Shown here: positions 13,122 through 58,865 of the stretch, one piece after another
Layout of the letters: the number at the start of each line of letters is the position of its first letter
Position numbering within the stretch: position 1 is the first letter of the stretch
DNA from: Psammoneis japonica
Lineage: Eukaryota
Assembly (NCBI GenBank): GCA_008632985.1
Contig: QPGO01000155.1
Span: 124,001 to 188,000 of the forward strand
Reading direction: 5' to 3'
DNA length: 64,000 bases
Notes under the pieces: generated by a model
What the model was told of the DNA's origin: nothing
Database searches by the model: none
Seen by the model: only the letters and a program-made list of their open reading frames with translations
Program-made: the position numbers and the translations under genes

Positions 13122-14504
13122 CCCAGCATTCTCCTTTAGCAAAACGAAACTTGGTTGGTATGTCAATGACTAGAGGGCTTTGCATCTAATGGCACTGGTT
13201 TACCTATCGGAAATGGATTCATGTTGATGAATGCGCGATGCGGGGAGGGAGCCGAGTACGAAGTACTATCACATGCTCACGCTCAGTGGATTCAAAGGAT
13301 TTGATGGGGTCTTCAAGTGAGAATGTCGTTCATCTGAATGGTCTTTCGAGTGTAGGAATAGCTCTGAAAAGATGTGACAGAGTAGAAAGGGGAAGAAACT
13401 TTTTTATGCACTACGAGTTCGAATAGCGAGTATGAATATTGGAAGAGCATTAATGACAGCTTTGCCGCTTCTTTACCCCATGACCTTTCCTAGCGGCCAA
13501 GAAGGCGGAGTGTAGTGTTGCTACAGTTACCGCGTTACTGATTCTTCAGGTCAGAAAGAGGATAAAGGGAGCTTGGTTCACCGTCCGACAAGTAGACTTT
13601 GCGAAACCGTCCGATCCGTACTTGAAATCACCTAAGGCACTTGACACCAATACAAATACGCAAATCCGAATAGGTAGCTCCCATGGCGGAAGCCATTCAT
13701 GATGCTGTTCCGCACATTGGCAAGAGCATTGTTCAACAGGCTGCGGGATTTGGTACCGCAGACGAGAATTGACGTGGAAGTTCTCTACCTCATAGATCCA
13801 GTGGACGCGTGCGCATGTCGCAACAGGTACTCGACTCTGACAGCAAGAAGTTGCTTCTCGACCAGGACGAAGATCAGGACGTGGCGAAAGGAAAGGAAAA
13901 TGCATGCAGGTAAAATTCTATAAGCCGAGGACCAACTGACTCAAGCTAACTCGGTGAAGCCTGTGGGCGTGTCCAAGCGACTCAGAACTTCACCGGCTGT
14001 CAGCAGCAAGCAGCGATGGAGGACAAAGTGCAAATATGGAAAGGATTAGGAAAGCGCATGCCTACCAGTCTTGCGCTCAAATCGAGTTTCTGATGCGAGC
14101 CATGAAAATCTTCGAGATCGACATTCATCGCCCGATCGTTTTGAAGCTACTCGAAGGATGCCCAATTGGTGGGGAAGAAGAGGGGGCGAGCCGTTTGTAG
14201 CTTCTCGAGAATGCTGCTTGGATTCTGCATGACTGAATGCGAGGGCTTCCTCATCACTAAAACTGTTGTCGACATGATGCAAATAATTCGTCTCAACGGA
14301 TCATCTTTCTTTGGAGCTTGAAACCGAGATCTCTGAAGAGAATCCGTTGACAATTATCCCTCATTTTCGGGTGATTGAATTTTGGTTGGAAGCATTTTCA
14401 ACATGCGCATCTGTCAGAGCAGGACGTCGATGATGATGCCACTGATGTGGTTTGGGACGAAGACGAATCCAAAGAAGCAGATGTGTGGACAAGGAGGTCA
14501 GATG

Positions 14505-16184
14505 TCAGCTGCAATGGCTCATCTCCTTCGTTCCGTGCGTGGCTTGGCATCGCAGTGCAGCACTCCCGGATGTTGGGGTCGGCGTGGAGATTGCATCATG
14601 TCTGTTTGACCAGAGCGTGGAAAGCACCGAGGCAATGGTTCGAAGGAGCATAGAGCAAGAATGTTTGAGACCTAAGATCCGTGTCTCAAGGACTTTCTTG
14701 GCGTGCGTTGTAGTTTCAGTGATGTTCCAAGCAATTTTTGAAGCGCTGAGATACATTGTTTCGCGACTGCCTGTTGTCTTCTCCATTGACCGAACAATGT
14801 CGGCAACACTTTCTTCAAACTGAGACCCCATTCTCTGATCCAAAGTGCACCAAGCCCCTTCAAACACCCATGATGAAGTCACTTCCCCGCGCCTTGATCG
14901 TTCTTCCAAATTCCCCTGCAAGTCACTGTCTTGAGAGCTGTTTAGCGACTTGTTCGTTCCAGTGGGAACTGGAGCTGTGGCCGCTGTGGGAGCCGGAGCT
15001 GCAACCGGTGCGGGAGCCGGAGCTGCAACCGGAGCGGGAGTGGGGTTGGTGATGGGCACCCAAGGGTTTTCTTCGGCCGCTCCCTTGGCCCTCTTGTGAA
15101 AGACGCATTTGCCCAAAGCACGAGGAGGGAGCATTCCCAAGCATGTTCCCAGGAGGCCATGAAGTGTCGCCATGGAATCCCTTTTTTTCCCATGAATGTT
15201 GCCTGCAGAAAAGTCTGGGAGAAGCATGCCGTTGCTGCGGCACTTCTGGATGTTGGCCTGGCAGCCAGCGTTGTGCGAGCAGGCGTTCATGCCCACGCAG
15301 TTCAGCACATCGTAAGATTCGTCATGACCAAGGTTTTGGATGTCCGAGCAGTTGCTGACAAAAAGGATGCCTGCAAACTCGTCTGAAAGAAAAAGAGAAG
15401 CAAAACTTTGAGGGCCAGGAGTCGCACAGCAGCAGTCGCAAGCACGCACGTCTCACTCACCAGGAGGCACTTCAGTCAAGGCAACCTTGCGTTTGGCTTG
15501 AATGACAACATGCAAGCATTCACAAGTGATCTTGCGGGGCTTCCGGCCCATGTCAATTGCCTGAATCGTGTCTGTGACTTGATCCACGACCGGGATCGCA
15601 GACACTTCCATGTTCTTGCCGGCGTTTTCAAGCCCCTCGAGCTGGTTTCTGGTGTCACGAGTGAAAGCGACGATGTCAGCTTTGATGCCTTCCTCGTGTC
15701 TTTTGGCCTTCTCTTTCTGATTTCGCAGCTCTGCGATTTTTGCTCCACAGTGATGCGAGTCCCCACCGGTCGCTTGCGTCATGATCTCCAGACGCTTGCT
15801 TGGGTCATCTGCAATTTCATGAACGAGCTTGGTGTCCTCATCGCCAAGAGCGACCATGGCGAACTCCTTGGTGCAGTTCATCAAATGCTGGGGACCAATC
15901 ACGCAGTCTTTGGAAACCATGGGAGGGCTTCTGACTTCTGGCGTAGAGTCGGCACGGCGGTGACGAGCAATGCCACGAGCGGATCCCGGCGTTCTGCGCC
16001 ACCACGTTGCGGCGTCCTGAAATTCGGGTTCATCGAACCGGCGTGCCAAAGTTACGGTTGTTGGAGCGCGATGGCTGCGGAGTGCTGTACATGGTGAGAC
16101 GTCGTGCAGCTTATCACAGACACCCGCTGTGGTCATGGAGTTGTGAGCTGTGCTCTGTGCTCTGTGCTCATCATCTGCATTCAT
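14505..16184 (-). pseudogene. Two-exon gene of unknown function, TpA-hypermutated
   Basis: ORFs 15453-16184 and 14505-15449 join in frame through a 78-bp GTGAGT..TTTCAG intron (15383-15460, PP-D-EFAG); only two Tyr in total, Cys/His-rich, PAPVAA repeat. Confidence 0.55.
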
Positions 16185-20661: not shown

Positions 20662-21757
20662 GTTGTTGTGATGGTAGCAATTGTGGCGCTTTTCTTTTTT
20701 TAATAAAGTGCAATGAGAAACCCTGAGTTATCAGTGTCCTCTATAACAGACTGGGTAGTTGACAGTGGGGCGACGGCGTTGGGTCATTCGTCTTGTCATA
20801 TGCGTCGGAGTCGTCTGGTCTAGCTCTGATGGTCCGAATGTTGCTGCGTTATTTTATTGTGTGCGTGTGCTGATGAGAGCGATGAGGCGTGCGTGATGTG
20901 TGTGCGGGAGCGGCGGTTGTGATGCGCGCACTTTTGGGTCGCGCCACATCATCATTGGCACGACTAACATTGAATTCACACATTCGGAAATAAATAAAGA
21001 TGAATGTGTGGTCGCGCAACATGACCCTACCAGTCGTGGAAGGCCGATTAGTTTGTTTCCAATTGATCCGTGCTCGGATTGAACGAGCCAGTGGATTGGA
21101 CCGGAGCACAGCAGAGTTAGCAGCCTTCCTCTTTTTTTCATGCTTTTAATGGAGTTCTTGCTTTTTACCTGGCGGGCTCTCGTTGCAACGGAGACTCTTC
21201 AGCTCAATCTCTTGGACGACAAGATCCGTGCTTCAGCCACCAAGCACAAAGAGCTTGCGCAGTGCCGATGGCTGTGCCGAACCAGCTGATGCCGGTCCAT
21301 CGCTTCCATTCTCGAACGCACTCCTGCTTGTCCACGTCTTGTCCAATGATTGAGAGGACATGAAGAGAGAAGCAGGTCTGGCCTGAAGCCATGCCGAAAG
21401 TGTTGAAGCTCATGACTGCAGCAGCACAATCAGAAAGCTGAATGTGCTCTGGGCCGATGATGTCACAAGTGTCCTTTTTCATTTTGGGTTGTCACAGCCA
21501 TTGTGTCTGAGTGCAAGAACAATCCACAGAAACAACAAAGTGTCTGTTTTTGCTTGTCTTCTAAGCGGCCAACAAAGAGCGCAAGGAGAAAGACAATCAA
21601 AGACGGATTTGAAGGTGTCGAACATGTCACACCTTGAGATCTTTGTGAGAAGTCCAAGGAAGCTCGTCAGACTTCCTGGATTCCTACAAGCACTTCCATG
21701 CTCGCATTTTCTTCCTTGCAAATGCTGTGCGTTGGGCTGTCGCTAAAGTGTGTTGTA

Positions 21758-21991
21758 AGTTGAGACACAGTCCCACAGCTGGGTGGGATGGATAAGACCT
21801 CGGAGGTTGGCAGCAATGTGAACAGCAACAGAGGTAAACAGACGCTTGTTCAAAGTCGTTGTCTAAAAATTATGACGAATGTCATTGCTTCTGTTTGAAT
21901 CAATTTTGTGATGAGCTGATCATTTCGAAGAGAAAATCTGAGTCTGGGTTGCAGTCGTGAGATGCGACCAGAATGACGTTGAGTCGCGACT
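21758..21991 (-). repeat. 3' LTR of element 1
   Basis: Direct repeat of 27933-28166, next to PPT. Confidence 0.95.
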
Positions 21992-22012
21992 CTCCCTCTC
22001 AACCGAGAGAGC

Positions 22013-25000
22013 TCACCAGCCCACAAGAGCCTTTCTAGCCGTGCGGAACGCATCGGTCCGTAGTCCCTTCGTGAACTGATCGGCCAGTTGCTCTGGAGTG
22101 CTGACAGGTTGGACATCGATCTCCAATTGTTCGACTTTAGTCCTAAACCAGTGGTGCGGGGTGCCGATGTGTTTGGTTCACGGAGACAACTTGGGCACAC
22201 GTGCGAACTTGAGGCACGCGGAGTTATCTTCACACACAACGGACGCAGGTGGGACATTCTGCGCTGCAGGCGAGTCATCGGTGCCTTGGGTTGTGAGCTC
22301 AAAAGCCTTGGAGTGAGTCGTGACAGGGTTTTGGCGGTCAGACTTTCCGAGTGCGTGGTGGTTGAGCTCCTTGAGAACTTCACGAACAGGGATGAGATCA
22401 CGCGTGGCTTGAGAAAGTGCGACACACTCCGCTTCCATGGTCGACAATGCTGCAAGAGTCTGCTGCTTGGACACCCAGACAAGCGGGCAGCCGGCGTGGC
22501 AGATGAGGCATCCAGTCCTGGACTTGACAGAAACTGGGTCTTGACCATCTTCCACACCAAATGACCCCGCGAAGTCAGAATCGACGTGACAATCAACTCA
22601 ATGATCTTGCGCAGGCTTGAGAATGAGACCTTCAGCAGCAGTTGCTTTGAGGCATCGGAGCATCCGCTTCACTGCAGCAGCATGGGACGCTCGGGGTGCA
22701 AACGAGAATCGAGCTGCTTGATGTGTGGCACATGCAATGTCTGGCCGGCTGTTCGCTGCCAAGTGCATCAACATTCCAACAACTGAGCGACAATCGTGGG
22801 GTTCATCAAAAGGCAGGCCGTCCGTGTCTGCACCAACAGCCGCAGGTAGAGCTGGAGCAGATGCTCCATTGCAATCCTGCATCTGTGCGGTGCGCAGGAC
22901 CTTGTCAATTAGACCGGGTTGAGTGAGTAGAAATCGACCCTCGGAGAGCTTTTCGATCTTGATGCCGAGAAAGTTGCCGACTTCTCCTTCGTCTCTAAGT
23001 TCAAATGCGTGGCGATGTTCATCGTCGGAGACTCCCAACTTGCGAATTTCGGCTTCTAGAGCTTCAGCTGAAGCTCCAGCAAAAACGGTGTCGTCGACGT
23101 GTGCCACACACATCGTGCCCTCTTTGAAACACAAACAGGGATCCATGGCTGAAGGTGCCCATCCGCGCTCGGTTAAACCAGCTCGTGACTTCTCGCAGAA
23201 GCCCTTGGGAGACTGTTTTAGGCCATGTGGTCCTTTCAAAAGTTTGAGAACCACATTGAGTCCCGACCTTGGTGCAAATCCCTTCGGCAGTGTTGTGTGA
23301 ACTTCCTCGGCGATGTCAGCTTGGCAAAAGGCTGTGGCATGGTCCACCTGACGTGCAGTCCATCCCTCCTTTAATGCCGCAGTGAGCATGAGTCGGATGC
23401 TGGACCATTGCACAACCGGCGCACAGGTTTCGAAGTGGTCGACTCCTTCTTTCTGTGAATCACCGCGGACGCAGTGTCGGGCCTCATGCTTGAGAGGGGT
23501 TCCATCTGGGAGTCTCTTGAGCTTCAGTGCCCATGTGCCTGGAAGTGCATTCACACGCGGCTGACGCTTGACTGCTTTCCAGGCTCGACAATGTGTGAGT
23601 GCGTTGACTTCAATTTTCATCGCCTTGATCCATTCGTCGGCGTCCGGACCTTTCAGAGCATTGTGTGACGAAGGCATGTCAGGGTCCTTGGTTTTCTTGC
23701 TAGCTGCGCAGGCTCGTGGATCGCCGATGTTGATGGCACCACTGTCCAAATCCGTCTCTCGGACACGAGGCTCGTCCCTTGGAATTGGGGGTGACATTGT
23801 AGATGTGTGTGGCATGAGAAACTGCCATGGGCCACAGGGAGCTGTCAATTCCCCCCTTCCAGTGGATTGATGCATGAAGCAACATCGCTCTCGCCATGTT
23901 GGAGATGCTGCGGATGCCCCGCTCTGTGACGCCGTTCTGATGATGGGCGTTGGTTCCACAAAAACGGAGACGTTGTTCATGTTCTCGCGTGTGTTGTGCA
24001 AAAGCGTTGGCCTTGAAAGCACCACCATCGGCAAGAAATTCTTGGATGATGACGCCGTGGTCCAAAGCATGTTTCTCAAATGCTTGCTTCGCTCGCATCG
24101 TCTCAACAGCGGAGAAACCCAGTTGGTGCTCGACCTGGACATAGCCAGAGGCGTGGTCGACAAAGACACAACCGCCCTTGAATTGCTTGGACGTGGCTTT
24201 GCCACATGAGTCGAAGGTGCGGCCCAAAAGGCGGGACTCAAAATGATCAACGCTGACAGCCTGACCCGGTCGAAGATGGTCAGCACGAAGGGCCCCGTCG
24301 CGTTCAGGGACTGTCGACTTGTGAGTAGATCCAAGGGAGTGTCTGTGACCTTTGGCACACTCGCGTGCCTCGCATCTTGGGTGGTCACACTTCGCTGCGG
24401 ACTTGAAACGGTTCGACAGGAACGGAGCTGCGCGGAGAAGTGCTTGGACGCGACCAAAGTTCAAATGGCCAAAACGGGCGTGCATTTCGAGAAGAAGCTT
24501 TTGGCCTGCCGTGAGGTTTTGATTCTCCTCGTTGAGGATCTGTAGATTCACTTGAGGAGCGGCAGATGCGCCCTTGGTCATCGACGCAACAGGCAAGTCG
24601 CTTGATGGATGACATGGCACGACCAACTTGCCTGTCCCATCAATGTGCAAACGGAAAGTGGTTTCATCGCCCTCACACTTCCCACGCACCCCCTTCTCTT
24701 CGTTGAAGAGGCATTGAGGCGACAGCAGGCACTGACGGGCTCCAGGAACGCAGCATGCCATGGTGTTCAGTTGGATGGCAGTGCCACTCGGCGTTGTGAA
24801 CACCCATGCAACCGGACCGGCACCCTGGATGGCAAGACCGTTGGCAATCCCATTGATCTGCAAGGGTTTCTTGGGAACAGTCATGGGCCCCGTAAAATCA
24901 TCTTTGTCGGGGGCAACAGCTAACGTGGCACCAGCATCCATGACGACCGTGAGAGCCTCGTCCGACAGACCGATGAGTGCCTGCGGATCGGATGCAAGGA

Positions 25001-27770
25001 GGTCGGCTTGAGATTGTCCGGTGAGCAGTCGGATGGTGGAGGCATTGTAGACGACTGGTCTGACACTTGCTTCCTCCAACAGTTCCACAGGATCTTGAAA
25101 ATGGGCAGTGTCCACGATGTGATTCGGCAGACAGAGCTCGTCAAACCGGAAGAAATCCGGGCTGAAGTCCTCAAGAGCGTCGAAGAAACATTTCTGGTCA
25201 TCGAGAGGTTCCAGTTCCTCACAGGTGTCAAAGAAGGCTGATTCGTCCATCGCATCAGACCGTTCAGCGACTTCTAAGCTCTCCCAGTGGGCCTTGAGAC
25301 GAGTGCTCAGTGCGTGTGACGGATGGCGCGCGACAAACTCGGTGAGCACTTGCGTGCCTTTGATCCTGTGACATTCGAACAGTGACCCCGTATCCAACAC
25401 TATCCGGTCATCTAGCTCTTCCACAACATGGTAGACTTGAGAGCTGGTGGTCGAAAAATGACTTGGTACGTTCGAGAATGGATGCTCGGGCTGTTGACCG
25501 GCGTAAACTGCTGACCATGCCATCACTGCAACGGACAGGACCATCCAGGAGGCTGGAAACCCGTGCAAAGTTGGGAGTTTGCGCTGGCGGCGTAGAGCTC
25601 GAGGGATGCATGGGATCGGAGCAAAGCAAAGATGCAGTGCCGTTTCCCAAAACATGGCGGCGAGCCAGAGTGTGAATGGCTTGACTCGTCCCAAGAGTGA
25701 GCGACGCAAAGTGGGCTCGTCTTTGACGTCCTCGTGACAATCATCCGCACCCAGGACCTCTGGATCGTAGAAATCGAAGCCACGACACGCAGCACACGGA
25801 GGTGAGTCGTAGCATGCGTCTTCAAAGTGTGCGTCATGTTCAAGGATGAGATCTAACTTTGTGTCGTCTGACAGCACATCTGTCAAATGTGCGGGAGCAT
25901 CATAGAACTCATCTGGATGCTTGACAGAGTACAGCTTCGAGGCCGGAAACAACTCAATAGCCGGTGGTTTGTTTTCAAAGGTGGAGAAAGCGTCGGAGCA
26001 TTCGCAGAAGTCATCGGCGTCTTCGGGAGTGACAGTCTCAACCACGATGGGAGACACGACTGGATCCACGACTGAGGTGAGTAGAGGTGGGCTCATTTTG
26101 TTGCAAACCACCTCAGCACTGATGACTGCATCGCTCTCCCTCTCGGCCAAAGAATCCGGAGTAACAACAATTGCAGTGGTGACAGGGGCGGAACAGAAAT
26201 CCGGGTCGGCAATGGCATCTGTAGCCGCGCACCACATTCCCGTGAAAACCAACTCGTTGGGGTCGGATTCGTCTCCCTCTGGTTCCTTGGCAGTCTGAGC
26301 GGGCGGACCCATGGGCACGCCACTGTCTGGATCAGCAACGGAAGACAAATTCCCGGCTGGGGTCTCCTTGGGAGGGCGCCTGTGGTCATCGGTGTGGTCC
26401 GCGGTAGAGTGCTTCTGGTGGATTCCAGGTTTGTCGGCACCCTTCGCCGTGCACGTGGCACACCACTTCCATTCCTTGCCATTCTTATCCTTCTTCGTTT
26501 CTCCGTCAAATTCAGTGCGCCAGGCAGCGATGGGTTGCCTCTTCTTCTTGGAAGGGTTGTCTGCAGGCGGCGGATTGGGAGGAGGATCGTCGCGCGGCGG
26601 TTTGGCGTTGCACTTTGGGCACGTCTTCTTGGTGCACCCCTCGAGACCGCAACCACAACAGTGCTTTGTCTTCCCAGGGTTGTCCGCAGTCGAAAGATTG
26701 CTCTCGGGTAGCTTGGCAACCAATGCAGGCCACTCCCCGTCCTTCACGAGCTCATTGTGTTGCTCCTGAATCCACGCAATGATGCCGACCGGTCCGAGTG
26801 TGTTGTGATCGCCATCGGACACGATGTCAGCAGGATTCTTGAGGCGGCACTTGCGTTCCACAGTCTTGACGTCGTCGAGCTTGTTGTAGACTTGCCGATT
26901 GAAGTGTTCAGAGGACGTAGAGGAGATCTTGTGGAGTGGCTTGGAGCTTGTGTTTGCCGGAAGCGCGCAGTCGGTCTGCACAATTTTCACGATGCGAAGA
27001 GCTTCGGCAGCAAAGTCCGTGCAATCCTCGCCGGGACAGTTGGCCAAACTGAGGTCTTCCAGCTGCTTCTCAGCCGTCTCAATGTCCATTGGAGCGCCAG
27101 TGTTGCAAGTGTCGAGAGCCATCATGAACAGAACAGATCCAGGGCAGTCTTGGCAGTCCGAGAGATGGTTGAACTTGGTCTCGATTTTTTCGCGAAAGGT
27201 GTTGGCGATTCTTGAGTGAACGAGAAGTTGAGAGAGCCCGATGTCGTCAAGCTCGATCTCGTTGTACTTGGTGTCATCGGCAGCTGCTTTCCTGGCCGTG
27301 TGCTCGTTCACGAGATCGGTCACAGTAAACTCGTGAAGATGGTCGAAGACACATTGAACCTTGTCGTCGCTGTTCTTGACATGGCAGAACGTCTGCTGAC
27401 CATGGGCTTCTGCTAGATCTCGAATGGTCTTGACGAAATGGCCCTTGTCAAGCTCGTTGATGGGACCGTCCGAAATCTCAAGTCAACCATTGAACTTGGA
27501 AGTCATTGCGGAAGCTTGTTGATCGCGGAGAGATCGTTCCATTGAGTCGAGAGCCTTGGGATGACGGCGCTGAGAGGCGAGTCGGCAGGTTCTGTTGTTG
27601 GATTGTTCGCAGCTGTTGTTGAGTTTGGAACCACCAATGTAAACCCCGTGGGTTGGGTGAATTCCACCACGTAACGGCTTGGTTGGAGCCGGAGGAGCGG
27701 TCGCCGCGGCGTTGGCGGCCATTGCGTCGGCAAACGCCTTCGCCAGAACAGCCGGATCGATGGTGGCCAT
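22013..27770 (-). pseudogene. gag-pol of element 1
   Basis: Gag from MATIDPAV (27770); zinc knuckle; protease MDAGAT; HARFGH; integrase VSVDH..FVDHASG..HHQNGVTER; RT ARHCVRGD, HGLKQSP, HVDD; RNaseH DSDFAG..SRTG, EDNS, ADQFTKGL. In-frame TGA at 27483, 22598 and 22178; deletion plus frameshift near 23775. Confidence 0.93.
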
Positions 27771-27932
27771 GACAGAGAGTGCAGTGTGAGAGGTTCTTGT
27801 TAGAGTGAAGACGAGAGAAGCGAGAGAGACTCAGCTATTTCCCGGGTTTGCTTCAAAATCAAAAACCGAAAGCGTCCGTGACGATGACTCGGTCAGGAGC
27901 TCTCGTCAACGCGCAAATTGGTCTCTGTGACC

Positions 27933-28166
27933 AGTTGAGGTGCAGTCCTGCAGCTGGGTAGGATGGACAAGACCTCGGAGGTTGGCAGCAATATGAACAG
28001 CAACAGAGGTAAACAGACGCTTGTTCAAAGTCGTTGTCTAAAAATTATGACGAATGTCGTTGCTTCTGTTTGAATCAATTTTGTGATGAGCTAATTGTTT
28101 CGAAGAGAAAATCTGAGTCTGGGTTGTAGTCGTGAGATGCGACCAGAATGACGTTGAGTCGTGACT
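27933..28166 (-). repeat. 5' LTR of element 1
   Basis: Direct repeat of 21758-21991; abuts a PBS-like ..ctctgtgacca on the + strand. Confidence 0.95.
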
Positions 28167-28608
28167 TTGTAACCAATCCCAACATTCGACGTCTTGTTCT
28201 GCAACGAGTGCAAATGTCTTATCAACTTTTCCATAGTTCGTTTGGAACGTCGTCCCGGCAAGGTGCTAGCTACTTGTAGACTTGCGAGTGGTTATGGTGT
28301 TTGTTGGGAAGAGGAATCGATATTTCAGGCTCGCATCGGGATTGTGCTGGATGAAAGCTGTTTCGGAAGCCAACTATCCACAAAACAAAAAAGACTAGGG
28401 CCCTAACCAGCCACTGCCTGCATAGTACAGGTTATCAATTATCTTTTTGTTTTGCGCGTGCGAAAACTCTTATTGACATCGATAAGTACAGTAACAAAGG
28501 TTTCTTTACAAGCTTGAGCTTATCTTGCGCAGTCCACCATGATGTAATGATTGCGATTTGTGCAATCTCTATGTCTATATTTCATAACGTTACCTACGAC
28601 TACCGCAT

Positions 28609-41539: not shown

Positions 41540-41886
41540 TGTGGGAAAGTAGCCAGAATTCTAAGATTCGTCTGCACTTTCAATGATTAAAAGCTGTAAT
41601 TGCGATACAACAATCAATCAGTAACTTTATTGTACCAAAAGTTGAGAGGTGATAATCAGTGCGTTAGAAAGATTATGAGCAGTTTTTATGAGCAGATGCA
41701 GCTGCCATCTAAAGGAAACGCGAAGTTAAACGAGCGCGAAGCTAGGAACAAACATCGCATTCGTGACTCGGCTTCCGCGGGATTCGAGACTGAGCATCGC
41801 ACACGGGGTTCGAATCTTGGATCTCTGATTTGAATCGTGGAGGTCCGATGTTGTTGTAAAAACATGCAAATATGAATATTGTCACA
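41540..41886 (-). repeat. 3' LTR of element 2
   Basis: Direct repeat of 47759-48105. Confidence 0.97.
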
Positions 41887-41929
41887 CTCCCTTCAACAAT
41901 GTCGGGTGGAATGATGACTCGAAAACGTC

Positions 41930-44900
41930 TTACCACTTAAGGAGCGATTTCCTGTGTTCGACGAAGAGATTCTGTGGTAGAGGTTTGGTGAAAATGTCTG
42001 CAATCTGATCCGCCGTATCAATTGGTAGAATTGATATGAGACCTTTGCGAACATGGTCTTTAAAGTGGTGGAGAGTGAGGTTGAAGTGTTTTGTCCGAGG
42101 ACGCATCTTAGGCAATCTCGCGATCTCCAATGCTCCAGAATTGTCTTCAAAAGCCTTACAATGTACGACTGGTGTCTTGGAAGGGACATTATGACCGTGA
42201 TCCATAAATTCTTGAATGAGGTTCAAAATTGGGGATGGCGCTTCGAAGACTTTCCGAAAGAGCGATAAATTCAGCTTCAGTAGTGCTGAGCGCGATCTGA
42301 GTCTGTAGCTTGGACGTCCAGACAATCGGACATCCTGCATAGGTGATGACAAACCCAGTTCGAGATTTGGAAGTGCCGACGTCATTGGGTGCAGTCAGCT
42401 TATTCCAATTGCCCACAAAGTCCGCGTCGGCGTGAACTTCAAGGGACTTGTCCGTTGAGGGCTGTAGTATAATACCTTCAGTTCTGGTTGACCTTAGGTA
42501 CTTACAGAGCCATAGTACGGCTTCACCGTGAGAAACCTTGGGATCGGAAGAAAGCGTGCGACTTGGTGCACCGCGTAAGCGATATCCGGTCGAGTGCTCT
42601 TCTCCAGAAAATTGAGCTTGCCGATGATGGATCGGTAATGAAAGCTCCCTTGGAAAGCAGGCTCACTCATATGCCTGTGGAGGATCTTGGAGGAAGGAGC
42701 AGGAGTAGGCTTATCTGGTAGTCTCTTTGGAATATTGGCTATCTCCAGTATCTGATTGATAAGGTGAGGTTGGGTAAGTTTCATTCTGCCGTCTGGTAGT
42801 GTTTCGACGTTGACACCGAGATAGTCGTCCAGAGTGCCTTGATCATCAATATCAAAATTCTCATCTCTGATATCCTGTATCGCCTTGTCAATAGCAGACT
42901 TGTCAGGGGATGCAAAGATACCGTCATCGACATAATGAATGAAAATGACATTGCCACGAAAATACAGGCACTCATCAACCGCCGATTGTACGAAACCAAT
43001 CCTTAACAATCCATCACGTAAGTGTTTCTTGCCATACTCTCCCTGCTTGCTTTTGTCCATATAAGTTCTTGAGCAACTTCAGAACATGAGTCTTACCATT
43101 GCCACATTTTGTTTCAATTCCTGCAGGTAACTCCATGTACATATCATGTTCGATATCGGCATGCGGATACGCCAGAACGAAGTCGACTTGGCGTGTATGC
43201 CACTTCTTAAGAATGGCAATGATCAGTAGGAGCCGGATAGTGAACCAGAAGACCACGGCAGAGTAGGTCTGGAAGTAGTTGACAGCATGCTCTTGCTTTC
43301 CACCGTGCACATTAAGTCGGGACTTCCATTTGTAGACGGCTTGGGTCTTAATATCTCTTTTGCGCTTCATAGACCATACCGAAGGGAGAACATCAACATC
43401 GTCAGGTACGTCCTCTCTTGGAATGAGTATCCAATGTTTCCTTTCAATATGATCATTGACCTCCTTAACACAGGCCTTGATAAATTCGTCTCTGTCAGGT
43501 TCACGCATAGCCTGATCAAAGTACATGGTGTCGGGGTCCGAGCTCGCCAGAAAAGAGATAGGTGAGTCCATATCGTCCTGCAGTTTGTAATCATCCTCGT
43601 GCATCGCATCATAATGTGCCTCTGCCTCTGCATTGTAGGAGACAATGCCTTGAGCCCGTTGTAGTTGGCTCTCGCGCATCCTTTCGGTCGGGCGTCGTTG
43701 TCGGCCGGACCTACTGGTGCTGGGTTGACCCATAGTGCGCTGTGGCTCAGATGGTGCGTCAGAATCATCTGGAGGCGTGTATAGCATTTCATCATCCGGT
43801 TGGGCATTATCAAATGAGTCATCAGTGGCAGACGTATCAGTGGGGTGCAGCAGCTGAGACGGGACATCCGAATTCGGCTCAGGTGGTTCCGTTGTGGTAG
43901 GGACTGATCCCTCAACCGGTACGTCACTTGATTTCCCAAAGATGTTGAAAGTACTCCTTGTCATGAGTTGTCTGAAACCTGCAATGCCTTGCCATTGTGA
44001 GAATGTAGGAGGATTCCCAGCAAAAGGGCGAACGGTCTCAAAGAAGTCGTCAAATTGTACGTGAAATTGCGGCGATACGAGTCCGGTCTGCAAATTCAAA
44101 ACCAAGGTAACTGAACCTGCGTGTCTTGTTGATGGTCCCAAATTGATTCCTAACCTTGCCCTTGGGTCCCACTTAGGCAGCCTACCTCCTCCCTGCAACC
44201 GGTTGTGCAAGGCGTAGACGGGACAGCCGAAGGTATGGTGTTGTTTGAGATTAGGCTGGACCTTGACGGACGAGAAACGTTCCAGCGGAGAAGAGCCGTC
44301 CTCGTGATTCGGTAAGTGATTCTTGATCTCGTTTGAGTTCCTGAGAGCGCTTGGCCATAAGTTCAACTCAATAGCCGTTGGCCATCTCACTTTTGCATGC
44401 AGGAGTTGCTTCCGAGATTGCTCTTGGAGGTCCCTTATTCTTTTCTCCGCGATGCCGTTTTGGAAGTGGGCGTTGACCCCACAATAGGATATTGTTTGCT
44501 GTTGCTTCTTGACGTCTTGTATGAAAGCATTGTCAGCAAATCTTCCATTGTCGGCGTGGTAGTGTTGAATACGGACGTGCATCCGGCGTGCGAATGCCTC
44601 GAAAGCGTGCTTGGCTTCGAGCGTCTCGGCTGAGGTAAGTCCTTTCTGCAAATACATGTGTCCCAATCCGCTGAAATGATCAACAAAAATTGTCGCTGCT
44701 CGATACCTTTGTTTCGTAGGTCTCCCTTTGAGCTGTGGGATCAATCCAGGAGTAGGACTCTCGAGCTGGTCGACGGATACGGCTTCTCCAGGCGAAGTTG
44801 CCAAGTGGATTCGTCGGTTCCGCTTGGACTTGGAGCGCCATGGTCGTTTCGTCATGGCACCGTATAGGCAGCCGGCACATTTTGGGTTGTGTACCTTTGT

Positions 44901-46190
44901 AAGGCGTTTCGGTAGAATGCCTAGGGCGGCCAATGGCTTTATCATTTTGAATGACATGTGGCCCAGGCGGCAATGCCAACGCAACAGTTCACCCTGGTCA
45001 TCTGTGGCAGCAAGGGCGTCATCATTTGGTGTGATGTTGATGGGTTCCGGTAAGTCCTGCTGTACCTCCGGTGTCGTGAAATCCCTTAGGTTTTCCTCGT
45101 CTGAGTCTGAACCACTTGCTCCGTCTGTTGGCTCAAATGAGACAGGAGCATCCTCATCAGTGGTGTTGCGTGCGTCTTGCGTCTCGGAAGGACGTGTCTC
45201 GGATGGACTTCTGAAGACGTCTGTATCAATTGCAGCCTCGTCATCATTCGCAATGCTCTCGTCGTCTGGTGGTATGATGTGAGCTTGACAGGCCACGTGC
45301 TCGATAGTTTCGATGTCGGTTTGTTCTTCGACAGCGGCTGCAAAGGTCCGGCATTTGTTGGAACCGGGTGCGGAGCGCATCTTGGCGACATTGGAGTTGG
45401 CGGACCATGGAATCAGGCGATGGTGCTTGCGCTGATCCCACATCAGTGACAGTCCGTCGTCCCTAGTCCAAGATGCGGTTCCGTGAGGCTCTGGCGTGTG
45501 GTCATTAGCTTGCTGGCTCCATTGCTGCGGGCAGAGAAGACAATGAGGTAAGTCGGGTGCATGGAGTGCGTCTCGAATTTTGATGCTGTGCACTTGTCCC
45601 ATGTCGTCCTCAATTGCCCACTGCACTGTTCCTTCTCCCTCAGCACGCAAGCAGCCCTTGACACCGAGTGCCATTTTGTTGGATTTGCGAAGAGGACCAA
45701 CGAAGTGTGCCTCGTCGTTGGACATGGTGCAGGAAGAATGCGAGTCGACGCCGATTGCGAATGAGCCCGAATCGTAAGTGGGCTCCGTTCGCTCGGGACG
45801 GTGTGGTGTGGTTGAGTTGCACGCTCCAACCGTCTTGTGTCGTGCAATGACATGGTGAGCCTTCTTGGTGGCCACTCTGGAGCGGTGACCTGGCCTCGTC
45901 GACGCATGACACCGTGCGCAGCACCTCGTCGTTGGCCGTCGCTGGCAAGTCTTAACTCGTCTTGTGCCTGGTTCAGCCAGGACATGTGAGATGACCCACT
46001 CACCCAGCGTCATCACGGCATGTGACAGGCGCTTGCACTTTTCTGAAGGAAGGGACAGCATCATGAACAGCAGCATGATCCAGATCGGTGCTGCACATTT
46101 CATGACGCCAGCGACCGCCATCAGGAGCACTGACACAGTGACGGCCATCTGCAAGGACAGCAGCAGTGTCAGAGTGAACCTGCAGAGCAG
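41930..46190 (-). CDS. pol of element 2 (PR-IN-RT-RNaseH) with frameshifts in RT/RH
   Basis: VDSHSS protease, WHCRLGH, VSVDQ..FVDHFS..HFQNGIAEK, FGCPVY, KSRLNVHG, LYGQKQAG, YVDD, TRPDIAYAVHQ, SRTG, EDNSG, IADIFTKPL. Confidence 0.93.
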
Positions 46191-47684
46191 TCACTCCACT
46201 TCGTTTAGGATGGTAGAGATGGCACTTGCGAAGGAGACTTTCTTGTCCGACGTGTCTGTGGATGGAGCAGACTGTTGCTTGCGGAGTCTGCAGCCTTGGT
46301 TGCCCGGATCATCAGGCAAGTGCATGACCCAAGCAGTGTGACATGGGCACCAGTGATGGTCGCGATTGTTGACGCGCTTGTGACAGCACTGATGGCCGTT
46401 CACTGTCTTCTTGGGAGTGTCCTCCTCAGGCGGGACTTTCTTCCAGGCTTCGTCCGCTTTCTGTCTCTGACGTGGAGTGGTCTTGGTCTTCCTTGACCGT
46501 GTGCTTCTTTCCTTGGTTGAGCCAGCCTTGGCCTTCAAAGCTTCAGACAGCTGAAGGTTCTGATCCTTGATGGAGTCTGCCTTGGCTGCAAGCGCGACGA
46601 TTTGCTCTTCAGCCGGTGACAGTGCTCCCCACTTCTTCTCGCGCTTGAGGTCAGCACATTTGTTCAGTGCCAACGTCATGATTTGCGTCGGCGTGAATTC
46701 CTCGCCGTCGTCACACCTGTCCTTGTGCAACATGATGCACTTGACGAACACTTCGTCAGCAGCTGCGGCGCATCCTTTGAATGGATTCATGATGAGGTCG
46801 TCGCACTGCTCTCCTCTAGCTTGGAGTCTGTCAACGTTGAGCTTGGCGCACTTGTTGAACTCTTCGATGTCCGAGTTGACAGCTGCCGCGCAGGTGTCCA
46901 GGCTTGACAAATTCTCGCGGAAGCAGTCAGCGGCAGAGCGTGTGTCAACGACGGCCTTTTGCGCAAGTGGCTTGAAGAACAGTGTGCCGATTTGATTTCC
47001 ATTGATCGTGCAGGAATCTGTCTCAGCCAACATCTTGTCTCTTGCTTCCTCCGCAAGGGATTGAGAGATCGCCTCGGCCATCTGCACATTGTTCTGTGCT
47101 TGTCGCACAGGTGGATTCGCGAAGGCATTCGCGTGGGTTCTTGCATCCTGTGGAGTGAGCAGTCCGCACTCGGAGATGAGATCTCGTGGAGCTCCATTTG
47201 CGTCGGGAATGGCAAGCATGTCTCCTGCCCCTGTTTTCCATCCTGCCTCGGCAGCTCGTTGACTGAGTGTCTCACAAAACCGTTTGAGACCTTCTGAATC
47301 GCCGTTGAACTCGTGCGGCAGCGGTGCAGTGGCGGCGTTCCAAAGCTTGAGGCCTTGCGATGTGCCGCAGTCAATGAAGTTGTTGGGACGGTGTTGACCT
47401 GGAGTCAACGCGAAGATCGGCAGTGGCGGCACAGGTGCCAATGGTGGTCCACCTGGCGGGGCTCCACCTGGTGGGACTCCACCTCCGCCTCCACCTCCTC
47501 CGCCACCTCCTCCTGGAGGCACACCGGGAGGAACGACTGGGGGAGGCACAGGAGCAACTAGAGCGGCTGCAGGAGCAGGTGCTGTTGCCGGAGCAGCAGC
47601 AGTGGCAGGAGCTGCAGCGGGTGCAGCAGCGGGAGCTGCAACAGAGGCAGCCAGAGCAGCCGCGGTTCGTGTCTGTGTGACCAT
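46191..47684 (-). CDS. gag of element 2 (497 aa, no Tyr)
   Basis: Ala/Pro/Gly-rich N-terminus, FALTPG, WC..H..W..H..C knuckle; lies between 5' LTR and pol. Confidence 0.88.
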   Translation of the reverse strand: MVTQTRTAAALAASVAAPAAAPAAAPATAAAPATAPAPAAALVAPVPPPVVPPGVPPGGGGGGGGGGGGVPPGGAPPGGPPLAPVPPLPIFALTPGQHRPNNFIDCGTSQGLKLWNAATAPLPHEFNGDSEGLKRFCETLSQRAAEAGWKTGAGDMLAIPDANGAPRDLISECGLLTPQDARTHANAFANPPVRQAQNNVQMAEAISQSLAEEARDKMLAETDSCTINGNQIGTLFFKPLAQKAVVDTRSAADCFRENLSSLDTCAAAVNSDIEEFNKCAKLNVDRLQARGEQCDDLIMNPFKGCAAAADEVFVKCIMLHKDRCDDGEEFTPTQIMTLALNKCADLKREKKWGALSPAEEQIVALAAKADSIKDQNLQLSEALKAKAGSTKERSTRSRKTKTTPRQRQKADEAWKKVPPEEDTPKKTVNGHQCCHKRVNNRDHHWCPCHTAWVMHLPDDPGNQGCRLRKQQSAPSTDTSDKKVSFASAISTILNEVE

Positions 47685-47758
47685 AGCAACAGCAGAGTAA
47701 AGCAGAATCGAGAGCTTAAGATCGATTGACTCAACTTGTAGATTGCGCAGAGGAAGCG

Positions 47759-48105
47759 TGTGGGAAAGCAGCCAGAACTCTAAGATTCGTCTGCACTTTC
47801 AGCGGCCAAAAGCTGCAATTGCGATGCAACAATCAATCAGTAACTTTATTGTGCCAAAAGTTGAGAGGTGATAATCAGTGCGTTAGAAAGATTATGAGCA
47901 GTTTTTATGAGCAGATGCAGCTGCCATCTAAAGGAAACGCGAAGTTAAACGAGCGCGAAGCTAGGAACAAACATCGCATTCGTGACTCGGCTTCCGCGGG
48001 ATTCGAGACTGAGCATCGCACACGGGGTTCGAATCTTGGATCTCTGATTTGAATCGTGGAGGTCCGATGTTGTTGTAAAAACATGCAAATATGAATATTG
48101 TCACA
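47759..48105 (-). repeat. 5' LTR of element 2
   Basis: Direct repeat of 41540-41886 with 10 A:T>G:C differences. Confidence 0.97.
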
Positions 48106-53290: not shown

Positions 53291-54819
53291 CGATTTTTTA
53301 GAGCGGGACCAGCAATCGTCGAGATACTACGTACAGGCATCTCATAGGTTTCCTGCTCCACCAGAAATTACACCAAAATTGACCAGCAGAGATTCGTGAC
53401 GCAAGGTGGTTGATGGGCTTGGATCTCAAGCTCCTACAAGAGATGTCAAACTGATGCTCGTCATGACTCATGGAGGATGCAACGGTAAAACTTCATGACA
53501 GTGCCATCGCGTGGGATCCAACATGGCCTCGTGAACTGGACGTCAACGTAGGACGGTGCATTTCTCTGAACGACATTCTTGAGTGAAGCGAGCCGGTGAG
53601 TTTAGCATCGTTGCACCCAGTTCGCTGCTCGTAATCCCTGCGGGAGAACTCAAGGGTGGCACATTCTGGATCTTCTGCTTCGACCTGGAGGCCTGAAGGA
53701 CATATTTTTTTCTTGACGCTAAAAGATCATCTCGACTCGTGCAACCGGCAGAGAGCCTTTGCGGGATCGACAAAATACACGAAAGAACTGCACTGGCGAG
53801 CGACAGAAAACAGCTTTTCGGCAACCTCAAACCGATGCTCTTCTTTTGATTTTTGATCAAGTTCTGCAGTTGTACTTCTGTTTCTAAAACCAACATGGAC
53901 TTAATATTCTAAGACCAAACATGGCTGCTATCCTTCACGACTTGTTGACTCATCGGTACGCACGCCATTGTGCACTCCGCATTTTTTTTGGGCAGGATGT
54001 CGTCAGTCCGTCGCTTCTCCGTCAATTTGAACAATCGCTGTGGTGCGTGGTGCACAGGCTTGTGCGTGGTGCACGACGCGTGCTGTGGTTACGGAGAACG
54101 GTCGCGCATTGTCTGTCGGTGGTTGTAGGAACAGTTGCAGTTGACTAGATTGTAAAGAACAACATGGCCAATCAAACCAGGTTGCTTTCTCTAGGGCTGA
54201 GTGCTTTTCTGGGGGCTGAAAAGCTCTGCAGCCAATCACCCGACTTTTCGAAAAACTCACTCCAAAGAACCCCTCATCTTGTTGGGATGCCAACAATCTG
54301 GCGGGTCTGTGACCGCCTGCTGCAATCCGGGCATTTCCTGACTGTAATCCCAGACAAGTGTCTCTCATTGAGTCAGGTTCTTTTTCATTTCAGTTCAGAA
54401 CCAATTTGGTTTACAGGCTCCTTGTTTCTAAATTGCACCCTGGAGCCTGCTTTGAACAGCGGCCATGTTCTTGTGCCTCTGCAACCCCGCGTTTGGCCTT
54501 TCTTGACAGTCACTGTGTTTGGTCGCTCCTTCATTTCATCTCATGCTGCATGTGATGCAACATCAGCACCTGAAATGTCCTTCTAAATTGCATCCATTTG
54601 CAGCCCAACAAACAGCATGGTGAGCTTCTCATTGTCACAATGAAGCAATTGCAGTCAAAGCAAAACCATGAGACTTGGCAGCCTGCGCACCTTTGCTTCC
54701 TGTTGCAACATTCCTGAGGTCTGAAAGCTTGGGGAAGAATCTCTGCAGCTGTTGGTTTCTCTCTCAAATCATCTGCCAAGGGAAGGCCAAAGGATGCCAT
54801 TGTGAACAAGTGTCTGGAT

Positions 54820-55096
54820 GACTTGCCTGGCATCAAACAAATGCGATGGACCTTTGCCTGGCATCAAATGAACACAAGGGACCTTTGCTTGGCATCAAAC
54901 AGCTGCTGAATGCAGCGGACCTTTGCTTGGTGTCAAACAAATGCAACCTGCCTGTGCTCAGCATTGAAGAATGAATGTGATGTGCCTTTGCTCAGGATTG
55001 AATGAACATGGTGCACCTTTGCTGGGGATCAAATGAGTGCCTCACTTTGCTCAGCATCAAATGAATGTGACAGATCTTTGCTCAGAGTCAAATGAG
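54820..55096. repeat. Degenerate ~30-bp tandem repeat, about 9 units
   Basis: Recurring cctttgc(c/t)(tg/ca)gcatcaaa core. Confidence 0.7.
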
Positions 55097-58000
55097 TTGA
55101 ATTTGAATTTCACAATGGAGCATCACAAACGCACTTTGCAGTCACTTGGCTCTTCATCTCATCCTTGTTCTTTTCACTTCAAGAACTCTAAAATCAGCAC
55201 TTTGTCAAACCCAGACTGCATCAGCATGACACATTGTTTTAAGTTTCTGTTTGCTCTGACTTTTCTGGATCACTGAAACTCAGGCAGGAAGCTTTGGAAG
55301 ACACTGGACAGAATGGGGCTGGGCTTCCGTTTTCAAAAAACAGCGAAAGCACTTGCATGCTCTTTTGTCTGCTGTGGCTTTGACTGTTTCAATTTGCCTG
55401 TCACCAATCAATTGTTCAACACAACAATTGCCGGCAAGTGCCAGCGCCCCGTGGACTTTTGACAACAGAATCAAGCAACTTCAATCTTTGAGCTCACAGC
55501 TCTGCCCTCTCCAGCAGGGAGCACTGCAGCTTGAGAAACCTGCTGCATCAGCTGCACACACCAACAAAAGCAAAGCAGGAGTGGCCCTGCACTCTCTGAA
55601 GCAGTTGCTGAACAATCTCGCCACTGGGTCCCCACAGGAGCTGTTTCTGTCATCCAAAGAACCATTCATTGTGCACGACTTCATGTTCTCAAGTGGAGTT
55701 TCAAGATTTTGCAAAGTTTGCTGTCACATCCAGCACAAAATGTCAACCAAAATGTGTGCAAACTGTCTCTTTCCTCATGCATTGCCAGCTCTCAAACTCG
55801 TTGGTGTGATGGAGCATTTTGACATGGTTGCCCCATTTCGCCCACTGGAAGAACCAACATTTCACACTCCTTTGTTGCTTGTTTGTCTCAAAGATGTGCT
55901 CCACTTTTGCAAAAAAATGATCATCATCAAGTCCTTCCCTGATGAGGGCTTTGATTGCTCCCTTGCTGAACTTCATGTTGGTCCTGCATTTGACACAACA
56001 CAGAGCTTGTTCACAAAAAGCAGTTTTGTGGCTTTGATTGTGAGCACTTGTCAGTCATCAGTGCCACATCATCTCAATGGGCAACAGCAGGCACTGCAGG
56101 GTGCTTTGCCACCTCCGGGCACAAGCGCACCCTTGTCATCTTGGTGCCTCAGTGATGAAGGATGAAATTTCATCTCAGGCTGAAAGCTCAACTTGGTGCT
56201 GGTCTTCTTGGAGTGTGAGAACTTGTGGCTTTTGTCATCTCTGCTGCTGGCAGCAACCACAACTTTGGCCTTGGTCTCCAGGCATTTGGCATTCATCAAC
56301 TGTGTGAGGCCAGTTTCTGCAAGCACTGAACGCAGCACTTGCAACTCTTTGGAGTGAATGTTGAACCCACAAGCCAGTGTTCCCAAAAAGGAATCCTGCC
56401 AGGCTTTGTGTGCCTCTTGACACACTTGTCTTGGTTGGTGGCAGTGGCTGTGGTGTGATGAAAGTTGTCAATGTGAACTTCAATCTTGCGGTGCACAACA
56501 GGTGCCCAGTGATGCCAAATGACAAACCAAATGATTCCATCCAAAGAGCAAGATGAAGCTGAAAGGTGAGAGATCAGCAATGGCGAAACTTTTCCCGGTG
56601 GTGCATTGAGGGGGTTGCCCATGGTGCATGAAAGATGCAAAGGCTTCAGACTTTCTTCTTATCAGCTGCTCACAGCAGTTGTGAAACAGCAGAAAATGAA
56701 AACTTGCAAGTGTGTGTGGCAAGAGTGAGCACCACATGATGATGGGGCATTGGCAGACAGGGCAACAAGCAGTGGCCTCTGCCAGCCAGTGGCTGTGAAG
56801 CAGCAGCACAGCACTCACCAAGGAGGGGACACTGCATCAGTTGTGGGGCTGCCCAGCAGCAGGGCCATCTGTGTGGCACCATCAAAGCAGCAGCAAAAAT
56901 CACCAGGCATCCCCACATGTTCCACCAACAAGTCCATCTGAGAGCAGGTGTTTGTCACAACATCTCAGTGACCATGTCAACATCAGACCATTTGAAGGCC
57001 AACAGCTGGGTTTTTGATGACTCAGTCAGGTCAAGGAGGACAAAGCAGTCTGTTGGGACAAATGCATGCTTTCTCTGCTTCCACCTTCTCAGCTTGCTTT
57101 TGCAGCCCAAGAGCTCAGGCTCACAGCACAGCAAGAAAATGAGGCCACTTCAGATGCAAGGAGTTGTTGAGGCAGAGGGGCAATGTCAACAAAAAAGAGC
57201 TCTGGGGTGTCATGTTTTGGCGCAGGCTTGCACTGCCACTGCACAAGCTGTGCTGCTGCCTTTGAAAGTCAAAACTGTTGAAACAGCAGCAATTTTGGGC
57301 AATCTGGGAGCAGCCATGATCACAGTTGGCATCAACGGCTTTTCAGTTGCTTGGCATGACATCACTTGAAAGTTGCAGTGTGCTCACTGTCATGACAACA
57401 AAGGCAAAGCTTTCCTTGGCTGCACATGGTGTGTGCACCTTGCTTGGGCACAACAAACATTGCTGGCAATTGTCAACCTCACAAGGAGCACACATGCCCT
57501 GCATTGAGAGGCACCCCCAGTCCTTTGCAAGGGTGCAGTTTTGTGGCTTGTGTTCATTTGCTGTGCAGCTGTTGCTCTTGCACTCATGCATCAGTCTTCA
57601 TCACAGAGCCAACAGGCTTCAGGCTTTCATGCCTGTTGTGGCCTGATGCTTGCAGCAACAGTTGTTTCCTTTGCTGAAATGGGGTGGTTGGTGCTGCACC
57701 ACTGCACTTCAATTCAACGGCATCAAAATGAGAGACAAATCAACATCTGAGGCCGTTTGCCCAGTTTTTGATCACTTGCACTAAAAGGGTGTCATTTGCT
57801 CTCAACTCAAACACCACTTTCTCATCTGCTGAGCTGCTGTTTGTGTGTTGGTGCAGCTGGGCTGGCTGCATGTGCTGTCAAGCCAATTTTCTGCCTCAAT
57901 GGCAAGCTCTTCTTTTTCCCATTGCTTGCCAGTCAGACTGGAAAATTTGAGAACAACAGCCACCTTTGGCACATCTCCATCAACTGGAGGGGGGCAAGAC

Positions 58001-58668: not shown

Positions 58669-58865
58669 NNNNNNNNNNNNNNNNNNNNNNNNNNNNNNNN
58701 NNNNNNNNNNNNNNNNNNNNNNNNNNNNNNNNNNNNNNNNNNNNNNNNNNNNNNNNNNNNNNNNNNNNNNNNNNNNNNNNNNNNNNNNNNNNNNNNNNNN
58801 NNNNNNNNNNNNNNNNNNNNNNNNNNNNNNNNNNNNNNNNNNNNNNNNNNNNNNNNNNNNNNNNN
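58669..58865. other. Assembly gap
   Basis: Run of N. Confidence 1.

Follow-up and report, generated by a model that had tools for sequence, protein, structure and literature searches.

A stretch of 64,000 nucleotides of the diatom Psammoneis japonica (assembly GCA_008632985.1, contig QPGO01000155.1, positions 124,001 to 188,000 of the forward strand), hereafter called the window, holds two retrotransposons with long terminal repeats (LTRs): element 1, depleted of TpA dinucleotides and of tyrosine codons in its internal part, and element 2, depleted over one part only. The signature is real and well beyond chance. It is very probably the product of region-limited hypermutation of the chromosome, by which TpA is changed to TpG or CpA (A:T to G:C, on both strands) in mobile-element DNA of this diatom. 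The process is mainly TA-specific, operates at the DNA level and on both strands, has sharp boundaries, and takes place after integration.

Loss of tyrosine codons and of TpA in element 1

The reverse transcriptase (RT)/RNase H segment of element 1 (367 aa, 22601-23701) was aligned with 50 relatives, 49-60% identical to it. The segment contains no Tyr, versus 3.4% Tyr in the relatives. Columns holding Tyr in at least 70% of the 50 relatives were taken as conserved; at these 9 positions element 1 features His (5), Cys (3) or Trp (1), and Tyr is retained at none (0/9). A sequence-only reading of this DNA had stated that nearly all the conserved Tyr residues of copia Pol read Cys or His, and the alignment bears this out; the seven peptide motifs quoted in its support are all (7/7) found in the minus-strand RT frame, at the places given. 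One of them, HVDD, starts at 23101 in element 1 in place of YVDD, which is found in element 2 at 42934. Other conserved residues are retained in element 1 (Gly 17/17, Arg 11/11, Asp 12/13). Further replacements are consistent with a change of TA to TG or CA: ACN to GCN after a codon ending in T, CTA to CCA, TTA to TCA, GTA to GCA, and ATA to ATG. Thr to Ala and Lys to Glu replacements occur after T-ending codons, as the same change predicts.

The interior of element 1 has 50 TpA among 5940 dinucleotides (0.84%, observed/expected ratio, o/e, 0.17). Host DNA of the window (38 kb) has 1600 in 38130 (4.20%, o/e 0.60), and the two differ with a Fisher p=1e-49. TG and CA rise in element 1 to o/e 1.30 and 1.36, respectively, and AT, AA and TT are unchanged. 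Tyr makes up 2.88% of the residues encoded by the host open reading frames (ORFs) of the window, so that the TA and Tyr content claimed to be normal in the flanking host genes is indeed so. Tyr-poor members were not found among 115 database relatives, the lowest value being 1.89%. No strand bias was seen, either in the replacements (His 5 versus Cys 3) or in the dinucleotides (TG about equal to CA).

TA-poor tracts were defined from TpA profiles taken per kb and per 200 nt across the window. Four were found, at 14401-16100 (T1), 21201-~28000 (element 1 and its flank), 45001-47853 (part of element 2), and from 54201 to the end of the window (T4). Of the 16 dinucleotides, TA alone is decreased, and TG and CA alone are increased, in the four tracts. 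GC content goes from 0.47-0.48 outside to 0.55-0.56 within the tracts, and some of the LTR changes described below fall outside TpA, as GC-biased gene conversion, or a general AT to GC bias of repair in repeats, would have it. Since AT, AA and TT are unmoved while TG and CA rise, the shift is not a general GC drift. The reduction of TA alone, 4- to 15-fold, and the excess of TpA sites among the element 2 LTR changes make such a bias scarcely credible as the source.

Element 1 and its coding frames

Element 1 was assigned to 21758-28166 by the sequence-only reading. The element is there; its coordinates are corrected to 21759-28167 on the basis of the target site duplication (TSD). Its parts are listed below.

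21759..28167, minus strand: element 1, full-length Ty1/copia-type LTR retrotransposon, hypermutated from end to end, with LTR pair, TSD, RVT_2 match and TpA o/e 0.17
21754-21758 and 28168-28172: TSD of element 1, TGTAA, 5 bp, perfect
21759..21992, minus strand: 3' LTR, 234 nt, 4 TA left, mutated over its full length
27934..28167, minus strand: 5' LTR, 234 nt, 7 TA left, most changes on the U5 side, 27940-27968
23700..27482, minus strand: gag-protease-integrase frame, 1260 codons open, 11 Tyr (0.9%)
22178..24460, minus strand: RT-RNase H frame, free of Tyr over 620 codons up to a single in-frame TGA at 22598-22600, with 139 codons beyond it

The RT-RNase H frame, shifted relative to the integrase ORF, matches the Pfam domain RVT_2 (E=9.8e-30). 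The integrase part, which matches the integrase of element 2, sits upstream of RT. Direct-repeat LTRs, a 5-bp TSD, RVT_2, and an integrase located upstream of RT place both elements among the copia elements (diatom CoDi-like). The closest named relative of element 1 is from Fragilaria crotonensis (60% identity). The TA-poor stretch runs beyond the 3' LTR of element 1, and the 5' LTR is affected mostly at its U5 end. TA is better retained between gag and protease, at 25400-26000 (5-6 per 200 nt versus 0-2 elsewhere in the element), and this patch holds 6 of the 11 Tyr of the gag-protease-integrase frame.

LTR pairs mark the changes as post-integrational

The two LTRs of an element are identical at insertion. 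The LTR pair of element 1 differs at 14 bases, corresponding to 11 events, all transitions. Five are exchanges of TA with TG or CA, three are doubles in which one LTR reads TG where its partner reads CA, two are of the CpG type, and one is of another kind. A column of the double type denotes two independent changes of one ancestral TA. TA-type events are thus 8/11.

All the 10 differences of the element 2 LTR pair (10/10) are A:T in the 3' LTR and G:C in the 5' LTR. They reside in 85 nt (47769-47853 of the 5' LTR); 10 changes are found in 95 nt, versus 0 in the remaining 252 nt, which are identical in the two LTRs. Five of the ten changes fall on TpA, although just 36 of 202 A/T bases sit in TpA (p=0.02). 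TpA is enriched among these A:T to G:C changes, and the lack of such enrichment had been named beforehand as a refutation; a strict specificity for TpA is not supported, 5/10 changes falling outside it. Over both elements, 24/24 differing LTR bases are transitions. As a control, TA-type events were counted in 12 LTR pairs of environmental relatives (locus L045 was left out, its "pair" being merely 75% identical). They are 4/33 in the control set and 13/21 in the window (Fisher p=2e-4).

Differences at TA sites between the LTRs of single insertions place the origin of the changes in the chromosome, once the element had inserted. Editing before integration, either of the element RNA by an ADAR-like enzyme or of single-stranded cDNA by a deaminase, in the manner of APOBEC3, would be in line with the large number of mutated family copies, many pieces being 90-99% similar in an independent sequencing run (X1, see below). 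A to G change with a preference for a 5' U/T is moreover a habit of ADAR, according to the text available of a preprint on Bigelowiella natans (10.64898/2026.01.13.699255). However, the sense strand features both A to G (Tyr to Cys, 3) and T to C (Tyr to His, 5), TA sites differ between the two LTRs of an insertion, and single-copy DNA outside element 1, itself variable between samples, also bears the signature. In retroviral replication both LTRs receive R-U5 by reverse transcription, whereas the R-U5 changes of element 2 are confined to the 5' LTR. The LTR pairs and the single-copy flank therefore exclude, to a very high probability, editing of RNA or cDNA prior to integration as the source. 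ADAR-type editing of RNA, subsequently copied into DNA, was considered as an identity for the process and set aside, given that both Tyr to His (5) and Tyr to Cys (3) replacements occur and LTRs differ at TA.

A half-mutated element

Element 2 belongs to a different family, elements 1 and 2 sharing about 35% aa identity. No further copies of either element were found within the window.

41540..48105, minus strand: element 2, second copia-type element, with LTRs of 347 nt (TG...CA) and TSD ATCGT
41540-41886 (3') and 47759-48105 (5'), minus strand: LTRs of element 2, 347 nt each
45001..47853, minus strand: hypermutated tract of element 2, TpA o/e 0.15 versus 0.61 elsewhere in the element

Pfam matches of element 2 include RVT_2 (E=5.6e-22), gag_pre-integrs and SH3_retrovirus. 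The tract (about 2.7 kb) extends from inside the 5' LTR, where the last changed base is 47853, through gag and protease, which are wholly covered, to integrase, where it dwindles from 45600 to 45000. The 200-nt TpA profile and the LTR comparison show that RT, RNase H and the 3' LTR have remained intact. Two Tyr are found in about 935 codons within the tract, versus 17 in about 660 codons outside. The tract starts about 50 nt downstream of a TATA-like sequence in the 5' LTR, CATAAAAA, and beside an AATAAA.

The process had been described as repeat-targeted. Element 2 has repeated parts that are unaffected, namely its 3' LTR, the greater part of its 5' LTR and the entire RT half.

Tracts outside recognisable elements

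Two of the four tracts correspond to the retrotransposons; the origin of T1 and T4 is not recognisable. The signature had been assigned to element 1, where it is found; it is not restricted to it, since three more tracts lie in the window and the flank of element 1 carries it to about 21201.

21201..21757, no strand assigned: single-copy, signature-bearing flank of the element 1 3' LTR, TpA o/e 0.11, CpG 0.60
14401..16100, no strand assigned: tract T1, TpA o/e 0.10, CpG 0.81, with a minus-strand 558-codon frame containing one stop
54201..64000, no strand assigned: tract T4, continuing past the window, TpA o/e 0.04, CpG 0.16, TG 1.80, CA 1.86

The flank is the second point at variance with targeting by repetition, as single-copy DNA carries the signature. 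As far as the evidence goes, the process is not repeat-induced. Copy number was read from X1, an independent sequencing run available as short contigs, for which 40 of the 119 differences from the window are listed. Summed contig depth is 56-75 at 21201-21757 (56-77 over the flanks overall), versus 2400-6300 over element 1. No stretch varies more between the window and the run than the flank, which has at least 10 differences, all transitions; one difference is found in the adjoining 700 nt, and one, plus an indel, in 1330 nt on the far side. Both junctions and the TA-poor flank recur in contigs of the run, 97-99% identical to the window but differing from it at fixed sites.

The possibility that base calling on chemically modified DNA created the signature is extremely small. 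Run X1, made of contigs from a platform not on record, is a limited control in this respect; still, it reproduces the flank and the junctions yet differs at fixed sites, and therefore represents separate data. An artefact would give the same base at the same site and would not leave the two LTRs of an element reading TG and CA at one column; nor does miscalling give tract edges so sharp or a pattern of this kind in the proteins.

The element 1 family is highly repeated in run X1, where 2098 pieces were found at 90-99% identity. A spread of this width would be expected of independently hypermutated copies.

T1 (1.7 kb) sits between host genes and features an Ala/Pro-rich run resembling the gag of element 2; two large protein searches gave no homologue for it. 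T4 (about 10 kb) is interrupted by a gap of 197 N at 58669-58865 and contains no recognisable gene. Its GC content is host-like (0.476), because TA loss and CpG decay cancel out. T4 holds many frames of 200-300 codons without homologues. No Pfam match above the curated cut-offs was obtained with 32 frames of T1 and T4; a word-index search with a 315-aa tract frame and a full HMMER search with a 243-aa tract frame gave no homologues (0 each), and tblastx of T1 and T4 within the window yielded no more than chance-level matches. A short tandem array occurs at 54821-55092 in T4. Its units lie 31-65 nt apart, and the copies differ chiefly by TG/CA alternation (GCATC/GTGTC, TCAAA/TTGAA), the same two-outcome footprint as in the LTRs.

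Other parts of the window are less marked. The region 49801-51200 is moderately TA-poor (3-6 TA per 200 nt versus about 12 expected) and includes two frames without Pfam match, which may reflect weak action of the process or simply coding composition. Tandem repeats of 153 nt, 87% identical, reside at 51178-51651, along with a third, more distant partial copy. They lie within a 301-codon frame (50875-51780) which has no Pfam match and looks like a repeat-containing host protein. The host genes of the window are long uninterrupted frames. One encodes PP2A-B56; its best matches, 81-93% identical, are from Cyclotella, Stephanodiscus, Nitzschia, Amphora and Cylindrotheca, and none of the entries is identical to it.

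CpG decay and context of the surviving TpA

Decay of CpG to TpG or CpA is present as a separate, second signature (CpG o/e 0.16 in T4, 0.60 in the flank of element 1). Among the 40 listed of the 119 differences from run X1, the window has TG or CA where other copies have CG at 17. This footprint is that of the usual cytosine methylation, and marks the tracts as silenced DNA. Deamination of 5-methylcytosine, which turns CpG into TpG or CpA, cannot account for the loss of TpA. CpG loss is mild in young tracts and near-complete in T4, which points to a slower process running in parallel. The values suggest an order of age, from young to old, of element 2 tract, element 1, T4.

Contexts were compared for 114 TA sites surviving in the tracts and 1779 TA sites in the host. 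Survivors are rare in ATAT (ratio 0.12), ATAC/GTAT (0.23) and ATAA/TTAT (0.38), and common in CTAA/TTAG (3.3), CTAG (2.3) and TTAA (2.1). Sorted by the 3' base, the ratios are 0.32 for TAT, 0.81 for TAC, 1.5 for TAA and 1.6 for TAG. TA flanked by alternating A/T may tentatively be regarded as the preferred and first target, subject to the starting composition of the elements.

Environmental relatives

From 537 confirmed environmental loci, 80 were kept. The search patterns demanded Tyr or Phe at two sites, and mutated copies are therefore under-sampled in this set. One pair of loci (L039/L033, 74% identity) features a weak asymmetry, with 37 changes of TA to TG/CA versus 11 in reverse. Two other loci, L042 and L054, are TpA-poor over their whole length (o/e 0.14-0.18), with CpG 0.10, yet of 8 conserved Tyr the former has retained 6 and the latter 5. 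They are either active lineages under the same mutation pressure in which Tyr codons are selected, or reflect a genome-wide composition of their own host.

Low TpA with functional-looking proteins, as in these two loci, is what would be seen if low TpA were the family's own composition, kept by selection through UpA avoidance in RNA or in a TA-avoiding genome. For the elements of the window this is very unlikely indeed. In element 1 the conserved Tyr are lost at 9/9 positions, the catalytic one of YVDD included; a tract boundary lies inside element 2; LTRs of the same insertion differ at TA sites; and host DNA of the window has a TpA o/e of 0.60.

Proposed process

The hypermutation would be fast relative to ordinary decay, removing 70-95% of the TA steps. 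Changes of TA to TG or CA are unable to create stop codons, and the proposal that elements are killed by missense agrees with this and with the conserved Tyr lost in element 1. Tyr would be replaced by Cys or His without new stops, leaving dead elements with long open frames.

As to chemistry, adenine at 5'-TA-3' would be enzymatically deaminated to hypoxanthine, which is read as G at the next replication. Such deamination is a candidate of somewhat less than even probability, favoured because pure transitions and the 5'-T rule fit it. In the substrates of tRNA deaminases A34 follows U33, a context that corresponds to the 5'-T rule, and the TpA step is weakly stacked in duplex DNA. That the two strands are changed equally speaks for an attack on duplex DNA at TpA, or for exposure of both strands. 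The sequence-only reading had specified A to G at TpA on both strands. The conversion of TpA to TpG and CpA on both strands stands; A to G as such cannot be told from T to C, since the reverse complement of TpA is again TpA.

This inseparability leaves room for the same phenomenon brought about by another chemistry, either modification of the TpA thymine, for example to 5-hydroxymethyluracil, or Pol eta errors at WA. 5-Hydroxymethyluracil at TpA is known in dinoflagellates. Pol eta acts also at AA and yields transversions, whereas the LTR changes are transitions throughout (24/24) and AA shows no depletion. An origin of this sort is on the whole unlikely; taken one by one, a modified, mispairing thymine and error-prone repair synthesis are each distinctly so.

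Targeting would depend on the state of the element, silenced or transcribed, and not on its repetition, a tentative view drawn from one clean case and somewhat less probable than its contrary. The position of the element 2 tract and its fading over 2.7 kb suggest, in this one clean case, a start near the transcription start site, from which the changes would spread downstream. Decay of methylated CpG would run in parallel and more slowly, giving young tracts which lack TA only, and tracts such as T4 which lack both TA and CG. A broader reading is doubtful: an old pathway common to diatoms and chlorarachniophytes, and maybe to all stramenopiles, alveolates and rhizarians (SAR), in which a DNA adenine deaminase would be guided by transcription or small RNA to the promoter-proximal part of silenced mobile or viral DNA, and would there remove TpA from both strands.

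Several observations weigh against hypermutation as outlined. The Tyr to Cys/His pattern is found in 0/80 environmental loci, though the search patterns were biased against such copies, and a contrast between 5' and 3' parts in 0/39 environmental relatives, the ratios being 0.69-1.53 versus 0.35 in element 2. The LTR changes of element 2 located outside TpA are five out of ten, four of them in one 5-nt cluster. The absence of strand bias is not what a simple deaminase working on the non-template strand would readily give. The polarity of the tracts rests on element 2, and would look no different if a mutated copy had been the donor in a gene conversion. CpG is lower in the flank of element 1 (0.60) than in element 1 (0.89), and the element may therefore have inserted into an older relic, the flank not being DNA reached by spreading from the element.

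Relation to known systems

No earlier description of such a signature had been known to the sequence-only reading. The same signature is however described in a 2026 preprint on B. natans (Mettrop et al., bioRxiv 10.64898/2026.01.13.699255). According to its available text, 231 of 302 new nuclear mutations in mutation-accumulation lines fell in integrated giant-virus and virophage regions. They were nearly all A to G or T to C, and the A:T to G:C ones were all on TpA (10.64898/2026.01.13.699255). The rate was about 6e-7 per site per generation, in some lines only; 324 TpA-poor genes were enriched for RT and DDE domains, 124 TpA-poor clusters were counted, and an ADAT2 homologue was proposed as candidate enzyme (10.64898/2026.01.13.699255). 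A single-copy viral insert was also affected (10.64898/2026.01.13.699255).

By analogy, the process in P. japonica is very likely of the same kind as the one measured directly in B. natans. Going by the same text, the two share TpA to TpG/CpA transitions, confinement to bounded foreign or selfish DNA with normal host DNA next to it, loss of TpA with gain of CpA and TpG, depletion in RT genes, and no need for repetition. They differ in host, B. natans being a chlorarachniophyte, hence a rhizarian, and P. japonica a diatom, hence a stramenopile, and in targets, which are LTR retrotransposons in the window, giant-virus and virophage inserts in the preprint's text. Depletion is deeper in the window (o/e 0.04-0.17, versus 0.45 reported for the nucleocytoplasmic large DNA virus region of B. 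natans). Changes in B. natans, as described there, involve TpA only, while TpA accounts for 8/11 LTR events in element 1 and 5/10 in element 2, and a tract edge lies inside an LTR; the rate was measured directly in B. natans alone. The available text of the preprint makes no mention of diatoms, of proof by LTR pairs or of tract edges (10.64898/2026.01.13.699255). No report of the signature in diatoms was found in the literature, subscription journals and preprint supplements being outside the coverage; looking up terms in the accessible text of PMC2806351, 10.1101/2025.10.24.684338 and PMC9258296, two of which deal with diatom transposable elements, did not retrieve it either.

Repeat-induced point mutation (RIP) of fungi is similar in several respects: it acts at the DNA level, by regional transitions on both strands which kill mobile elements, can spread to neighbouring DNA, and leaves a dinucleotide footprint. 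The designation of the process as the reverse of RIP is arithmetically exact, as TpA is lost here and made from CpA by RIP. RIP creates stop codons, which the process in the diatom cannot do, and requires duplication and a sexual cycle, whereas here unique DNA is affected and repeated LTR parts are spared. As an identity for the process RIP was discarded: TpA is lost, single-copy DNA is affected, and the duplicated LTR parts of element 2 are not.

Animal APOBEC3, acting on cDNA, and ADAR, acting on RNA, also produce transitions in retroelements with a dinucleotide preference, a 5' U in the case of ADAR. They act before integration and on one strand; the changes in the window are post-integrational, concern both strands, and reach DNA outside the elements. 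In immunoglobulin genes, the tracts of somatic hypermutation start just downstream of the promoter, fade over 1.5-2 kb and involve both strands. The element 2 tract resembles them, a likeness which rests on one element. In contrast to the mixed spectrum initiated there by the cytosine deaminase AID, the spectrum in the diatom is pure A:T to G:C.

Significance

LTR divergence is inflated by the process, and LTR-based dating of insertions is therefore wrong in such genomes. Annotation is affected as well: because TAA and TAG are removed and no stops are made, long frames without meaning stay open in several phases throughout hypermutated tracts. Compared with the available text on B. natans, the window adds an in-place origin of the changes, traced in single insertions, a tract edge located in an LTR to within about 10 nt, and a first ranking of TA contexts. 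If the broader reading of a shared old pathway is true, a natural adenine base editor would serve as genome defence, and its tracts would start at the transcription start of the elements, as in antibody hypermutation. P. japonica is a second, phylogenetically distant host of a phenomenon first reported in 2026, and provides new anatomical clues to it. The signature is thus not the curiosity of one species, and its presence in a diatom brings the question to a group of great ecological weight, for which transformable model species as well as methylome and small-RNA maps exist.

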